Origin: Promethearchaeati archaeon
GTDB taxonomy: Archaea > Asgardarchaeota > Heimdallarchaeia > Heimdallarchaeales > Heimdallarchaeaceae
Assembly: GCA_013166775.1 (NCBI GenBank)
Contig: JABLTJ010000038.1
Coordinates: 1-27,993, forward strand
Direction: 5' to 3'
DNA: 27,993 bases
Part shown: piece after piece, positions 3 to 5,427 of the stretch
Layout of the letters: every line of letters starts with the position of its first letter
Position numbering within the stretch: the stretch's first letter is position 1
Translations under genes and position numbers: made by a program
Notes under the pieces: generated by a model
Databases searched by the model: none
The model's input: only the letters and a program-made list of their open reading frames with translations
Told to the model about the DNA's origin: nothing

Positions 3-179
3 TATGCAGGAACTTACTCCAATTGGTTGAAAGTCATAGAAGGAGCACTTGATCCGATTAAAGGAATCCTAACTAGAAAATTCAAGTTAGTTGGAGATAA
101 AGGAAAGGTAATGAGAGCTACTAAAGCAGCTAAAGAATTAGTTAATTCAGCTCAAAAAATACCAACTGAATTTGTATAA
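3..179 (+). CDS. SCP2 sterol/lipid-binding domain protein, C-terminal part (truncated by window edge; not in ORF track)
   Basis: My translation from base 3: YAGTYSNWLKVIEGALDPIKGILTRKFKLVGDKGKVMRATKAAKELVNSAQKIPTEFV* (TAA 177-179). The W..vi.G.LDP....l..k.kl.GD...vMR pattern matches the C-terminal half of SCP2 domains. Confidence 0.75.
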   Translation, partial: YAGTYSNWLKVIEGALDPIKGILTRKFKLVGDKGKVMRATKAAKELVNSAQKIPTEFV

Positions 180-213
180 CTTTTTATTCTACTATTTTTT
201 TTATTTGAACATC

Positions 214-3204
214 ATGTGGTTCTATTGTGCTCCACGCAAAATTATTTTTGGAGAAGATTCTCTAGAGGAATTAAATGAAATTAAAGGAAGAAGTGCTCTT
301 GTAGTCACAGATAAAGTACTCATCGATATTGGAATACCTCAAAGAGTAGCTAGTATATTAGAAGCTAATGGTTTTAAAATCACAGTCTTTGATCGAGTAG
401 ACTATGAACCTTCTATTCCTATGGCAAAATCTGGTGCAGAAATTGCCGAGAAGGAAGAAGTAGACTGGATTGTTGCTATTGGTGGAGGATCAGTGATTGA
501 TTGTGCTAAGGCAATTTGGGTATTTTACGAAAATCCAGATATGAGTATAGACAGCGTTTTTCCTGAGGATCCTTTACCTTTAAGGAATAAAGCAAGATTG
601 ATTACAATTCCAACTACAAGCGGAACAGGTTCCGACGCTAATTGGGCAATCGTCATTACAGATCCTGAGACAAAACAGAAACTAAGTGTAGGGCATAGGG
701 ATCTAATTCCGGATATTGATATAGTTGACCCTTCTTTTACTGTGAAGCTTCCTCCTAGGTTAACCGCTTCAACTGGGATGGATGTACTAGCACATGCAAT
801 TGAAGCTTATACAATTCAATGGAAAAATGATTTTTCTGATGCTATGGCTTTACAATCAATCAAGATGGTTTTTGAATATCTTCCAAAGGCATACAAAGAT
901 GGGGAAAACTTAGAAAATCGTGAAAAGATGCATAATGCAGCAACTATGGCTGGCATAGCTATTGGCAATAGTCAAATAGGTGGAGCTCATGCACTTGCTC
1001 ATTCTGCTGGTGCAGTTTTTAAGATTCCTCATGGAGAGATTATAGCAGTAGTTTTACCTCATATGATGCGATTCTGTCTTGAAGTTGAAGAAACAGTAAA
1101 ACACTATTCAGAAATAGCTCATGCAATAGGGCTCTCTTTCGAAACAGAAAGAGAAGGAGCTGAAGAATTAATTCTCAAAGTTGAGGAACTTATTCAAGAT
1201 ATAGGATTGAGAACAGAGTTAAGTGAATTTGGAATCTCAAAAAGAATGCTAGATGAAAATATGGAAATGCTTACTGATTTTGCTCTGAATGATACAGGAT
1301 CTCTTGTTAATCCAAGAGATATTTCTGGAGAAGCTCTTAAGGGATTATATTATGAAATGCTTGGAGAACCGTTTGGAGGGTACAGAGGAGAAATAGTGAA
1401 AGTCAACCTTACATCTAAAGCAGTTTCTGTTGATCCGTTAGATTCCCAAGCAGCGCTGAAATTCGTTGGAGGAAGTGGACTAGGAGCTTATTATTATTAT
1501 CAATTAATGAAAGACAAAGTAGCAGCACCATTGTCTCCTGATAATGTTTTGATTTTCATGACTGGACCAATGACTGGATTACCAACTTCATGTTCAGGAA
1601 GGTTTACTGTATGTTCTCGTTCTCCGCTTACAGGTTTTTGGGGAGAAGCTAATTCAGGAGGTCATTTTGGTCCAGAACTGAAATTTGCAGGATATGATGG
1701 ATTAATCATCGAAGGAGCATCAGAAAATCCTGTTTATCTTTTAATTGAAGATGACAAAATTGAGATTAAAGATGCTTCGAACTATTGGGGAAAGGGTGTT
1801 TATGAAACCCAAGAATTGCTGTTAGAAGAGTTGAATGATGATTCTTACAAGATTGCATGTATTGGTCAAGCAGGAGAAAATCTAGTAAAATACGCAGCAA
1901 TTATGAATGATGGTGACAGAGCAGCAGGTAGAACAGGTTTAGGAGCAGTAATGGGATCCAAGAATCTGAAAGCTATTGCTATTAAAGGTTCAAATCGAAA
2001 ATTCAGACTTCCTGAAATTTTCAAGAAGAAATCTCAAGAAGCTTACGAATTTATCAAAGAAGATTTCTCAGTTGAACTCACTAAGGAACTAGGAACATCA
2101 GGATTTGTTGATACTGCAGTGGAACTATATGGTGATATGCCAATTCGTAATTGGTCAGAAAGCAGTTTTGAGGGAGCTTTCAACATCTCTGGGGCAACTA
2201 TGAAAGAGACAATTCTGGTAGGCAGAAAAGCCTGTTATCGTTGTCCTATAGGCTGCGGAAGAGTTATCGAAATACCTGAAGGTGAATATAAACTTGAAAA
2301 AACTAAAGGACCGGAATATGAAACTCTTGCTGCTTTCGGAACAAATTTGCTGATTGATAATCTTGAAGCTCTTGCCAAAGCAAACTTTATAGCTAATGAT
2401 TTTGGTATGGATACAATTTCTGCAGGAGCTACGATTGGAGTGTTCCTTGATTTAGTATCTAAAGGCTTTGTTCCCCTAGGTGAGCTAAATGAGGACATAG
2501 AATATGAGTTTGGTAAACCTAAAACTTTGTTAAAACTACTAGAGATGATAGCATTTAGGAAAGGGATAGGAAATTTCCTTGCAGAAGGAAGTAAGCTTCT
2601 TGCAGAAAGATACCATTACTTAGCATTAGCTCCTCAAGTTGCAGGATTAGAAACGCCTTATCATGACCCTAGAGCATTCAGTGGAATGGCTATTCAGTAT
2701 CTAACCAGTCCCCGAGGAGCTTGTCATAATAACGGTGATGCATACCTGATACAGCAAGGTATTGAATATCCAGAGATAGGCATAGATAATCTACCTGAGG
2801 ATAGATTTGAAAGTAAAGGAATAGCAAAACAAATGGTAAAATTACAGAGTTATAGACAACTCTACAACTCAATGACTATTTGCATTTTCTACAATCCACC
2901 AGCACCACTGATAGCTGAACTTCTTGGTTTTTCAATGGGAGAATCTTTGAAAACTGATGATTTAATCCTTTTTGGAGATAGAATATTTGCACTGAAACGA
3001 ATGATAAATTTAAAACTTGGTTGGACACCTGATTTACAAAAATTACCAAATGTTATGATGCAAAGATTAGAAGGACCTACGGAAGGAAATGTTCCTGATT
3101 ATAAAACACAATTAGCAGAATATTATGAATATAGAAATTATGATCTTCAAACAGGTGAACCAGATCAAGAAGAACTGCAAAGAGTAGGATTGGATACAAT
3201 ATAG
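214..3204 (+). CDS. Fusion: iron-containing alcohol dehydrogenase (N-term, ~214-1356) + tungsten/molybdenum aldehyde:ferredoxin oxidoreductase (C-term, ~1357-3204)
   Basis: Fe-ADH motifs: GGGSVIDCAK, PTTSGTGS, GMDVLAHAIEAY, AHALAH, PHG. AOR motifs: GYRGEIVKVNLT, SPLTG, ELKFAGYDG, IGQAGENLVKYA, RAAGRTGLGAVMGSKNLKAI, CYRCPIGC, GPEYET, GMDTIS, DPR, RGACH and the distal Cys in ICIF. No stop between domains. ATG 214 preferred over TTG 172, which overlaps the upstream gene and a T-tract. Confidence 0.95.
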   Translation: MWFYCAPRKIIFGEDSLEELNEIKGRSALVVTDKVLIDIGIPQRVASILEANGFKITVFDRVDYEPSIPMAKSGAEIAEKEEVDWIVAIGGGSVIDCAKAIWVFYENPDMSIDSVFPEDPLPLRNKARLITIPTTSGTGSDANWAIVITDPETKQKLSVGHRDLIPDIDIVDPSFTVKLPPRLTASTGMDVLAHAIEAYTIQWKNDFSDAMALQSIKMVFEYLPKAYKDGENLENREKMHNAATMAGIAIGNSQIGGAHALAHSAGAVFKIPHGEIIAVVLPHMMRFCLEVEETVKHYSEIAHAIGLSFETEREGAEELILKVEELIQDIGLRTELSEFGISKRMLDENMEMLTDFALNDTGSLVNPRDISGEALKGLYYEMLGEPFGGYRGEIVKVNLTSKAVSVDPLDSQAALKFVGGSGLGAYYYYQLMKDKVAAPLSPDNVLIFMTGPMTGLPTSCSGRFTVCSRSPLTGFWGEANSGGHFGPELKFAGYDGLIIEGASENPVYLLIEDDKIEIKDASNYWGKGVYETQELLLEELNDDSYKIACIGQAGENLVKYAAIMNDGDRAAGRTGLGAVMGSKNLKAIAIKGSNRKFRLPEIFKKKSQEAYEFIKEDFSVELTKELGTSGFVDTAVELYGDMPIRNWSESSFEGAFNISGATMKETILVGRKACYRCPIGCGRVIEIPEGEYKLEKTKGPEYETLAAFGTNLLIDNLEALAKANFIANDFGMDTISAGATIGVFLDLVSKGFVPLGELNEDIEYEFGKPKTLLKLLEMIAFRKGIGNFLAEGSKLLAERYHYLALAPQVAGLETPYHDPRAFSGMAIQYLTSPRGACHNNGDAYLIQQGIEYPEIGIDNLPEDRFESKGIAKQMVKLQSYRQLYNSMTICIFYNPPAPLIAELLGFSMGESLKTDDLILFGDRIFALKRMINLKLGWTPDLQKLPNVMMQRLEGPTEGNVPDYKTQLAEYYEYRNYDLQTGEPDQEELQRVGLDTI

Positions 3205-3272
3205 ATCTCTGTAATTATTTTTGGTAATAGTGAACATCTAAATACCATAAAATTAGAAATAGTTCGTGAAAT

Positions 3273-4109
3273 ATGTCAGATGATACTCAGCTCAAAATGG
3301 AATTATTTTCAGCTCTTTCTCACCCAATAAGACGTCAAATGTTGGAATTTATAGCGAAAGAGAAAGAAGTATCATATACTCAGTTAACCGACACTTTTGA
3401 GCTTAAATCAGGACCTCTTTACCATCATCTACGAAAAGTAAGTCAATTTGTATATCAGAGAGAGGATAAGAAATACTGTTTAACAGAAGAAGGTTTGAAA
3501 GCGATAGCTATTCTTCAAGGTGTAGATGCACCATCTTTTGAGGAACTTGATACACTATTGAAACCTAAGATTATTCAAATAGGCAAAGTATCTTTAGCAC
3601 CTTTCATTAGATTCTTCTCAAACAATCCATATCATGTTTATATTGAATTCATCATTCTTGCAGTAATTAGTGGATATCTTGGAGTAACAAACAAGATCAT
3701 AATTGTAGGGAATTTCGTATTGAATTTCGAAATAAGCTTAGTTTTAGCTTATGTCAGCATGTTTGCTAGCTGGATCTTCCTTGCGATTGTTTCTGAAGTG
3801 TTGAGTAGAGTATTCTATAAGAAGAAGGAAAATACTATTGCCATATTTGGGGTAACTAGTTTAATCTTTCTCCCTTCATTCATATTCATTTTAGTTGTAT
3901 GGCTAACAGGATTAATAATGGGAACAACAATTGTAGTACCTACAATTGCACTACTGATTCTTCATGGTATCTTCCAAATATGGAGCTTCTTAGTAATTGC
4001 TACTGCTTTAGGAGTACTCAAGGATTTATCTCTCGAAAAATCAGCAATCATTGCTCTAATTGGAAATTATATTCAAATTTTCAGCGTAATATTCATCATG
4101 CTTACTTAA
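3273..4109 (+). CDS. ArsR-like winged helix-turn-helix protein with C-terminal multi-pass membrane domain
   Basis: N-term LFSALSHPIRRQMLEFI...SYTQL...GPLYHHLRK...YCLTEEG is a typical ArsR/wHTH pattern, followed by about five hydrophobic segments. Confidence 0.85.
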   Translation: MSDDTQLKMELFSALSHPIRRQMLEFIAKEKEVSYTQLTDTFELKSGPLYHHLRKVSQFVYQREDKKYCLTEEGLKAIAILQGVDAPSFEELDTLLKPKIIQIGKVSLAPFIRFFSNNPYHVYIEFIILAVISGYLGVTNKIIIVGNFVLNFEISLVLAYVSMFASWIFLAIVSEVLSRVFYKKKENTIAIFGVTSLIFLPSFIFILVVWLTGLIMGTTIVVPTIALLILHGIFQIWSFLVIATALGVLKDLSLEKSAIIALIGNYIQIFSVIFIMLT

Positions 4110-4293: not shown

Positions 4294-5427
4294 ATGAAGT
4301 CAAAAATGATAAACAAACAAACATTGCTTTTGGGCGGCCTACTGTTTATACTAGTTTTTTCTAGTTTAATGTATATACCAGTAGTTGCTAGTGATGACGA
4401 CGATGAAAATGGAGTACCCACTGATGACGAGGACGATGACGGCATTCCTGATGATGAAGAAGATGAAGATGACGACGGGGTTCATGACCACGACGAAGAG
4501 GATAATAAACGAAAGCTACAGATAGAAGTTTCTGACTACGAAGCGCACATTGAATCTAGTTTACAAACTGGTGATGTTCATAACGAATTTGGTGTTGAAA
4601 TGCATGCTGAAGATGAAGGCTTAAAATTTCAATTTGAATTCGAAAGAGACAATGATACAGTTGAAACCGAGCTTGAGTTTCAAGTAGTACTTTCAGAGAT
4701 CATAGAATATATTGATGATCCAATGGATGGTTACTATAATGAATCGATTGATGAGGTTGTACAAGTTGTAGAACTTAATGATTGGAACCCAATAGTGTAT
4801 ACAATAGAAACCATAGGAAATGATACTGTACATGTTTTCTCAATTGAAACAGACGATAGTGTTTTTTCAGCAACAATTTACATAACAGGTGAGTTTACTG
4901 TTGTGAATGAGGTTTTAGTTGCTCCAACTCAATTAAAAATTGATGTAGGTATTCATAATTTCAATTATACTGAACCAGATTCAGTTCTTGCTTTAAAGGT
5001 TAAGCTAGATTCTGAAGAAGAAGTAGATTATGAAGACGATGAAGAAACTGAAGATGAAGAATATGAAAATGCAACAAATGAGCATGAAGTAGAAGTTACA
5101 CTTGGTGATTATAGTGGATTCTTCTCATGGATTGAAACAGCAACTATTGATGGCGTCGAACAAGAAGTTAAAGCTACTCCTATTGATGTAGGCGCAGAAG
5201 AAAATAAACTATATCTGAACTATCCCAGAGGTAATGAAATTATTCATGATCCAAAGATAGGTATTGCAGGTGTTCTACAGATAACTAGTCCAACAGGGTT
5301 CTTAGGCATAAGGTCCAGGATCGAGCTTCCTGATCTGTCTAGAAACGAACTCTTGATTGTATCTGCAGCAGCACTTCTGACAATTACTGGTCTAGTTATG
5401 GTCTTCAGAAGAAAACGTAGGCGATAA
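4294..5427 (+). CDS. Very acidic secreted/cell-surface protein with thrombospondin-type-3-like Asp repeats and C-terminal TM anchor
   Basis: Signal peptide ending about VVA|S; DDDENGVPTDDEDDDGIPDDEEDEDDDGVHD; beta-rich acidic body; C-terminal hydrophobic helix followed by RRKRRR. Confidence 0.8.
   Translation: MKSKMINKQTLLLGGLLFILVFSSLMYIPVVASDDDDENGVPTDDEDDDGIPDDEEDEDDDGVHDHDEEDNKRKLQIEVSDYEAHIESSLQTGDVHNEFGVEMHAEDEGLKFQFEFERDNDTVETELEFQVVLSEIIEYIDDPMDGYYNESIDEVVQVVELNDWNPIVYTIETIGNDTVHVFSIETDDSVFSATIYITGEFTVVNEVLVAPTQLKIDVGIHNFNYTEPDSVLALKVKLDSEEEVDYEDDEETEDEEYENATNEHEVEVTLGDYSGFFSWIETATIDGVEQEVKATPIDVGAEENKLYLNYPRGNEIIHDPKIGIAGVLQITSPTGFLGIRSRIELPDLSRNELLIVSAAALLTITGLVMVFRRKRRR
4393..4503 (+). 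repeat. Asp/Glu-rich DxDDDG(I/V)PD-type coding repeats (putative Ca2+-binding)
   Basis: Three imperfect copies: DDDENGVPTD, DEDDDGIPDD, DEDDDGVHDH. Confidence 0.7.

Follow-up and report, generated by a model that had tools for sequence, protein, structure and literature searches.

The DNA analysed here is a stretch of 27,993 nucleotides (nt), referred to below as the window, from contig JABLTJ010000038.1 of the assembly GCA_013166775.1; its host belongs to a Heimdall-group Asgard genus from marine sediment, of which 25 species-level genomes were examined. The window carries a gene in which an iron alcohol dehydrogenase (Fe-ADH, hereafter ADH) and an aldehyde:ferredoxin oxidoreductase (AOR) are encoded in a single reading frame. 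Its start was placed at ATG 214, and not at the upstream TTG 172, because all homologues begin with MWFY. The gene and its parts are as follows:

214..3204, + strand: fused Fe-ADH::AOR gene, 996 codons plus TAG (ATG 214 to TAG 3204)
214..1368, + strand: iron alcohol dehydrogenase domain, residues 1-385 (Pfam Fe-ADH and ADH_Fe_C)
1369..1377, + strand: three-codon linker P386-F387-G388 (from comparison with the unfused locus L130)
1378..3201, + strand: aldehyde:ferredoxin oxidoreductase domain, residues 389-996 (Pfam AFOR_N and AFOR_C)

Four Pfam domains were identified on the 996-amino acid (aa) chain, each over its full profile: Fe-ADH (PF00465; residues 7-173, E 3e-45, 154 bits against a cut-off of 31, profile positions 1-168), ADH_Fe_C (PF25137; residues 184-380, E 2e-54, 182 bits against a cut-off of 27, profile positions 1-191), AFOR_N (PF02730; residues 393-592, E 1e-80, 267 bits) and AFOR_C (PF01314; residues 608-993, E 1e-104, 348 bits). 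In the ADH half, the GGGS loop (90-93), the iron ligands D190, H194, H259 and H273, and also D33 are invariant among 16 fused homologues; in a broader set of 51 ADH sequences D190, H259, H273 and GGGS are invariant and H194 is nearly so. The best solved relatives of this half are the ADH domains of AdhE (3zdr, 255 bits), with which both its metal site and its GGGS loop align.

The AOR half matches the solved structures 1AOR (415 bits) and, best of all, 9MQX (436 bits). By alignment with the AOR of Pyrococcus furiosus, the cluster cysteines C674-x2-C677-x3-C681 and C890 correspond to Cys288, Cys291, Cys295 and Cys494, and all four are invariant in the 16 fused homologues as well as in 55 broader sequences. 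C837 sits in a conserved GACH directly ahead of H838 and was rejected as a cluster ligand; it is C890 that aligns with Cys494. The segment GPEYET lies at 699-704, and the active-site residues Y702, E703 and H838 (equivalent to Tyr312, Glu313 and His448) are invariant in the fused homologues; H838 is invariant and E703 nearly so in the 55-sequence set. Of the two pterin motifs, the first (DxxGLD in the family) reads N728-D-F-G-M-D733, with Asn for Asp338, as in 9MQX, and with the pterin-contact residue D733 (Asp343) invariant across the 16 homologues, and the second (DxxGxC) reads N885-S-M-T-I-C890, with Asn for Asp489 and Thr for Gly492. The junction between the halves reads ...YYEML-GE-PFG-GYRGEIV; variation at the join is limited to residues 386-388, and the length of the linker is constant in all 16 aligned homologues.

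A full-length AlphaFold model built from a 94-row alignment reached a pTM of 0.72 and a pLDDT of 93.7 that falls to 81 at the join (an earlier full-length model from only 16 close homologues, pLDDT 58, was unusable). The modelled AOR half has a TM of 0.94 to 1aor, 9g7j and 9mqx, and the modelled ADH half a TM of 0.91 to the AdhE ADH domain 6sci (0.91-0.93 over 6sci, 8zwd, 3owo and 1rrm). No solved chain spanning both halves was returned by a Foldseek search of the PDB with the model, and when the two halves, with separate alignments, were put to complex prediction the score was 0.00, which is not evidence either way. The predicted domains can be taken with confidence; with this pTM and the dip at the join, a fixed interface or tunnel is not read from the model.

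Distribution of the fused frame

A word-indexed search of 5.8 billion proteins returned 17 further protein clusters with the same architecture and no gap at the junction, 15 of them full length (997-1007 aa) and 2 truncated, at 67-84% identity. They come from NCBI, JGI, ENA and Logan, and their named members are Heimdall- or Thor-labelled Asgard metagenome-assembled genomes (MAGs). When 399 genomes of the phylum were searched in all six frames, the uninterrupted frame was confined to the window's own genus, where it was present in 14 of the 25 species-level genomes (nine full-length copies and five that are cut by contig ends and cross the junction). Logan contigs from two further samples bridge nt 1309-1884 and nt 1029-1900 with zero differences and zero indels (the samples belong to one marine-sediment study, and one of them may be the source sample). 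Both halves are under strong purifying selection, about equally: the ratio of nonsynonymous to synonymous substitution (dN/dS), computed only on gene pairs with unsaturated synonymous sites, was 0.063 (ADH) and 0.069 (AOR) for L018-L019, 0.050 and 0.066 for L020-L022, and 0.125 and 0.143 for L023-L024 (overall 0.05-0.14).

The first-pass annotation, made from the letters of the window alone, had described one frame with a full Fe-ADH and a full AOR, and the four full-profile domains bear this out. Of the motifs that it named, D/H/H/H, GGGS, CxxCxxxC, a distal Cys, which is C890, and EYET are present, and its "essentially no linker" agrees with a join at which only three residues vary. It had also allowed for a one-off read-through or for a stop or frameshift at the junction: the architecture turned up in 17 clusters and in more than half of the genomes of the genus, and the contigs of the two further samples pass over the junction with no stop or indel.

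Fusions of the same two enzymes were also found outside the Asgard archaea. HMMER, run exhaustively over 1.84 billion cluster representatives, revealed three further fused forms, P0133 (1026 aa) and P0153 (1029 aa) in the order ADH-AOR and P0246 (977 aa) in the order AOR-ADH. Relatives of P0153 occur in Anaerovoracaceae MAGs (L047-L049), P0133 is flanked by bacterial genes such as mraZ and uvrC, and about 23 clusters, under the names Deltaproteobacteria or Ca. Tharpellaceae (Desulfobacterota), make up the P0246 set. In both domain trees many unfused sequences separate the bacterial fusions from the distant Asgard clade, and the nearest relatives of the fused Anaerovoracaceae ADH half are unfused Anaerovoracaceae ADHs; this distant placement (both trees were made with FastTree only) points to at least three independent origins of ADH/AOR fusion, which we consider likely. 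In the databases, the fused proteins are automatically annotated as "iron-containing alcohol dehydrogenase" or "aldehyde:ferredoxin oxidoreductase".

Either enzyme was also met in other combinations. Other AOR fusions include P0260 (992 aa), P0194 (832 aa) and P0125 (776 aa); MAGs labelled Aenigmarchaeota and Nanohaloarchaeota encode AOR with an OMP-decarboxylase/HUMPS-family domain attached, and an AOR fused to a GNAT acetyltransferase was seen as well. Fe-ADH is fused to multi-[4Fe-4S] ferredoxin-type domains in P0482, P0487-P0498 and many more proteins (about 546-570 aa), which is another way to tie an iron ADH to iron-sulfur electron carriers.

Origin from an adjacent gene pair and the surrounding genes

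Among stand-alone proteins, the closest are ADHs of 383 aa (65-66% identity) and AORs of 612 aa (68-70% identity), encoded by adjacent genes on the same contigs, with a gene for a 138-aa SCP2-like protein first. In the sister genus the ADH ends in ...NEMF-TAG, and the AOR starts at the very next codon, GTG; read-through of this in-frame TAG was weighed as an idea and dropped, as no result bore on it. At the unfused locus L130, placed next to the fused clade in the AOR-domain tree (FastTree), the junction reads ...SMLGE-TAA-ATG-AGT-GGA-TAT, against ...EMLGE-CCG-TTT-GGA-GGG-TAC in the window. Because the two junctions are of equal length and the stop and start codons abut in frame, the fusion is an in-frame replacement of those two codons; P386 stands where the ADH stop codon was and F387 where the AOR start codon was.

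At L011-L013, L026, L027 and L130 adh is directly followed by aor, the stop codon of the one abutting the start codon of the other, and adh/aor pairs that are in frame with 1-3 stops occur in at least six family-level groups, more distant Asgard families among them. In many Asgard genomes (e.g., f31 g78, f20 g53 and g54; the genomes are related and the counts are not independent) a single stop is all that parts unfused adh from an aor in its frame; translational coupling may by itself account for such pairs, or read-through may now and then yield a fused product. Distant ADH-AOR matches with one in-frame TAG (36-38% identity) were noted at G087:C199:3439-6384, G084:C55:165681-168635, G083:C37:34421-37357 and G131:C15:4405-7389; the frames that contain them run free of stops for 1231-1237 aa, roughly two AOR lengths, and one partner may include an extra domain.

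Separate ADH and AOR trees (FastTree) are congruent and recover the same subclades, with the fused sequences nested within the paired-gene clade. In a concatenated IQ-TREE tree at least two state changes are needed, one fusion and one later fission; since the base of the ingroup is not settled in this tree, there may have been further events. The fission is represented by L129, which groups with a fused sequence (100/98 support). At L129:1140-1240 a tandem duplication (CTAAAGGAGGATATC twice, about 25 nt apart) introduces a TAG, a GGAGG box and a new ATG, so that a separate ADH (392 aa) and AOR (621 aa) are encoded inside the fused clade. Recombination has acted as well: the fused protein P0010 (probably the G026 copy, L024:1501-4479) is a mosaic, 93-98% identical to P0006 over residues 1 to about 390, 83-92% identical to P0009 over residues of about 400-900, and closer to P0006 again over the last 100 residues or so, and these identity blocks, together with disagreeing ADH and AOR trees, indicate that the AOR half was swapped at the domain boundary.

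The features next to the fused gene are:

3..179, + strand: 3' end of an SCP2-like lipid-carrier gene, truncated at the start of the contig to its last 58 codons (tblastn)
180..213, + strand: AT-rich spacer from the SCP2 stop to the ADH-AOR start (read directly)
3233..3244, + strand: conserved intergenic 12-mer AACATCTAAATA between the fusion gene and the next gene (locus comparison)
3273..4109, + strand: DUF7347/HTH_20 putative transcription regulator (Pfam)
4294..5427, + strand: conserved 377-aa protein, next gene in the genus-level synteny (no Pfam match)

The SCP2 fragment is 81% identical (tblastn) to residues 81-138 of the 138-aa SCP2 protein encoded 5' of the unfused pair at L011, and Pfam SCP2 was detected on the homologues at L011 (E 1e-6) and L015 (E 4e-11). 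Every fused locus that has enough flank shows an SCP2 gene upstream, as do g2, f7 and f31; within the spacer, the stretch ttttattctac is common to four of the nine fused loci. Downstream, AACATCTAAATA or a near-identical 12-mer occurs 5-30 nt past the stop in L017-L020, L022 and L023, about 30-45 nt before the start of the regulator gene, and it may be the promoter or operator of that DUF7347/HTH gene. The regulator itself has the same position in L018-L025, L030, L032 and L129 (tblastn, 50-90% identity) and is absent downstream of the g2 pair. Stretches homologous to the 377-aa protein follow the regulator in L018-L023, L030 and L129, one was found in L130, and an Atlas search with this protein returned unnamed archaeal clusters only. 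Genes for accessory flavin or iron-sulfur subunits are lacking beside the AOR, the neighbours being SCP2, the HTH regulator, the protein of no assigned family, a histidine phosphatase and others. The fusion is the only strong Fe-ADH of its genome, and its AOR half, which represents a distinct ADH-linked subfamily, is only 33-37% identical to the other AOR paralogues there.

Proposed function and alternative explanations

The gene is real, and its protein combines two intact catalysts that are both under purifying selection. Most simply read, it performs both steps, and we consider it probable that it is a selected bifunctional enzyme that runs the AOR-ADH route on a single chain. The N-terminal iron-ADH half would interconvert alcohol and aldehyde, with NAD(H) as its probable cofactor because Asp33 is invariant at a position that we take to favour NAD over NADP in the iron-ADH family. 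The C-terminal AOR half would turn aldehyde into carboxylic acid, or the reverse, at a site with tungsto- or molybdopterin and would exchange electrons with ferredoxin through its [4Fe-4S] cluster, and the two halves would jointly amount to the known AOR-ADH route, independent of coenzyme A (CoA) and ATP, on one polypeptide. The ancestral state was a three-gene cluster of an SCP2-like carrier, adh and aor, widespread in Asgard archaea, and the abutting stop and start codons turned into sense codons in the ancestor of the window's genus; because they were lost between proteins that were already paired, the fusion fixes a 1:1 ratio and close proximity. We infer the two activities and their cofactors, as well as any kinetic gain from proximity, from these features. 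The conserved SCP2 neighbour suggests a preference for hydrophobic (e.g., long-chain) substrates, and the route could run either as alcohol oxidation that feeds NADH and reduced ferredoxin to the hydrogenases of a syntroph or as acid reduction that serves as an electron sink. The recurrence of ADH/AOR fusion in bacteria, in both orders, was counted as support for functional coupling. A bolder version, in which the fusion and SCP2 form a self-contained CoA- and ATP-independent alcohol/acid module with true aldehyde channelling and with tungstopterin obtained from syntrophic partners or sediment, is in our judgement quite unlikely.

A number of observations weigh against the bifunctional enzyme, and the main caveat concerns the pterin cofactor. 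MoaC, MoeA_N and the MoaA C-terminal domain were found in none of the 25 genomes of the genus nor in three neighbouring genera, while two closed genomes from a different genus in that family have MoaA, MoaC and MoeA, encoded in a cluster (the lack of a MoaE match, PF02391, was not counted, since MoaE was also not found in the sister-genus genomes that have MoaA, MoaC and MoeA). Binding proteins of the ModA, WtpA and TupA type (PBP_like_2) were not found in the genome that the window comes from (G000), and its only MoCF_biosynth-domain protein is CinA-like (G000:C72:23964-24755, - strand). Because these canonical genes are missing, which the first-pass annotation had no means to see, the de novo supply of the cofactor is unexplained and the AOR half is only presumably active. 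Asn885 replaces Asp489 in the second pterin motif; it is common to the whole Asgard ADH-linked clade and to many other AOR-family sequences and is therefore probably no sign of decay. The chain reaches no NCBIfam equivalog cut-off (the best model, AdhE NF010378, scores 320 of 951 bits), so that the substrate cannot be read from the sequence, and, as L129 was split again and most Asgard lineages keep two genes, the fusion as such is not essential. From the pterin findings one could argue that the AOR half does not work for want of its cofactor and persists as an iron-sulfur or structural module, the protein being in effect an ADH only. We consider this very unlikely, since the AOR half is constrained as strongly as the ADH half and the equivalents of Glu313, His448, Tyr312 and Asp343 do not vary among the 16 homologues. 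The genome also keeps 6-7 AOR-family genes, MobA-like genes and a formate dehydrogenase alpha subunit, FdhA (G000:C22:3200-5914, - strand; 869 bits against an equivalog cut-off of 666), which fits salvage or an unknown pathway better. Of the 189 Asgard genomes with a completeness of 90% or more, MoaC was detected in 98, in a patchy distribution (e.g., f20 49 of 88, f31 13 of 40, f5 2 of 11, f7 0 of 3), so it is missing from about half of them, whereas nearly all have AORs (in the phylum, 390 of 399 genomes gave AOR-family matches); the literature searched yielded no paper on this mismatch. Given the strong constraint on the AOR half, we favour cofactor salvage or an unknown pterin pathway over a dead domain.

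A more serious competitor of the bifunctional enzyme, although we still think it the less plausible, is that the fusion was a selectively neutral accident and that the tethered domains act as separate enzymes, with no channelling, new regulation or new assembly. The fusion is restricted to one genus while the unfused pair is widespread, substitutions in just two abutting codons sufficed to produce it, a nested lineage returned to two genes, and 8 of the 25 genomes of the genus lack the gene with this query; the exchange of the AOR half of P0010 at the domain boundary likewise shows the halves behaving as modules. On the other hand, at least three independent ADH/AOR fusions, in both orders, argue for some benefit, and the linker keeps its length in every one of the 16 aligned homologues. 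That the gene lies 214 nt from a contig end in a MAG that is 88.7% complete might bring to mind an artefact of assembly or sequencing, or else a pseudogene-like read-through that arose recently in one genome. With the same junction uninterrupted in 14 species-level genomes and in 17 protein clusters from four data sources, covered identically by contigs of two other samples, and with dN/dS at about 0.05-0.14, this explanation is excluded for practical purposes and its probability is negligible.

The significance of a bifunctional enzyme would lie in several directions. AOR together with ADH is the ATP-free route from acid to alcohol of anaerobes and engineered strains, of practical interest for biofuels and fine chemicals, and a single-chain version tests whether proximity helps the hard acid-to-aldehyde step and mitigates aldehyde toxicity. 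The system is a natural test case for proximity because it comes with three controls, namely the sister-genus pair, the re-split lineage and the independent bacterial fusions in both orders. The conserved SCP2-adh-aor cluster points to an unrecognised alcohol/aldehyde/acid metabolism in sediment Asgard archaea, possibly with lipid-like substrates, and, with the pterin pathway missing, one may ask how these relatives of eukaryotes supply their numerous tungsten-type enzymes with cofactor. The interest of the fusion is mainly that of a natural experiment with built-in controls and of a clue to Asgard metabolism. The first-pass annotation had regarded the protein as an independent analogue of AdhE and knew of no characterised example. 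The fusion is indeed genuine, conserved and unstudied, and no description of a natural ADH/AOR fusion was found in the literature searched, nor in a 2025 review of tungsten enzymes (PMC12096430; neither "fusion" nor "fused" is in its text). The novelty has to be narrowed: the abutting pair was already conserved across Asgard archaea, its merger is limited to one genus and was undone at least once, and public databases already contain similar fusions, so far unremarked, from at least three other lineages, with no paper found on any of them.

Comparison with known systems

In the AOR-ADH route (PMC10816221), reduced ferredoxin serves to reduce acid to aldehyde and NAD(P)H to take the aldehyde on to alcohol, and both steps also run backwards; the two-enzyme pathway is established in Moorella, Clostridium autoethanogenum, Thermoanaerobacter sp. 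X514 and engineered Pyrococcus furiosus (PMC10816221, PMC12096430). The fusion shares with it the families of a tungsten-pterin AOR and an NAD(P)H-dependent ADH, which in the fusion too would act in sequence with no CoA or ATP. In the known pathway these are separate proteins, often encoded apart, whereas the window has one chain with a three-residue join and an SCP2 neighbour. The unfused Asgard SCP2-adh-aor clusters (L011, L014, L015 and L130), of which no description was found in the literature searched, are closer: they are orthologous (56-66% identity for ADH and 57-70% for AOR), with the same gene order and SCP2 upstream, and differ in making two polypeptides where the window's genus has P386 and F387 in place of stop and start. 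The bacterial ADH/AOR fusions have the same four Pfam domains on one chain as the window protein; they differ in their low identity (29-34%), in linkers of about 12-23 residues and in having no adjoining SCP2 gene. Those of the Anaerovoracaceae type (about 1010-1030 aa) have the order of the window, and those of Desulfobacterota (about 977 aa) the reverse.

Single-subunit tungsten AORs (1AOR; C. autoethanogenum 9G7J) resemble the AOR half in score (375-415 bits), in fold (TM 0.94), in the four cluster cysteines and in the equivalents of Glu313, His448 and Tyr312. The fusion departs from them in its 385-residue N-terminal ADH, in Asn for both Asp338 and Asp489, and in a host that has no canonical pterin synthesis genes. 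An enzyme of the 9MQX type is expected to have extra flavin and iron-sulfur subunits, and no genes for such subunits adjoin the fusion. PDB 9MQX (released 2025), by its title an electron-bifurcating tungstopterin aldehyde oxidoreductase with NADH, and the best solved match of the AOR half, is a known way of tying aldehyde oxidation to both the NAD and the ferredoxin pools, as the fusion would; in the fusion the link to NAD(H) would be made through a second substrate-level redox step.

AdhE (spirosomes 6AHC, 6TQH and 8UHW) is the familiar parallel, in that an aldehyde-forming enzyme and a closely similar iron ADH share one chain and a toxic aldehyde intermediate. In AdhE a CoA-acylating aldehyde dehydrogenase (PF00171) is N-terminal and the ADH C-terminal, whereas in the fusion the ADH is N-terminal and is followed by a pterin/[4Fe-4S] ferredoxin enzyme; the fusion has no PF00171 match, and the AdhE model NF010378 aligns with it only at model positions 458-862. 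The first-pass annotation was thus right to treat the protein as an analogue of AdhE and not as its relative; the aldehyde channelling and the spirosome-like polymerisation that it also proposed are conjectural. In sum, the fusion is an AdhE analogue in layout, produced in one genus by the merger of a pre-existing gene pair, and it is evolutionarily reversible.

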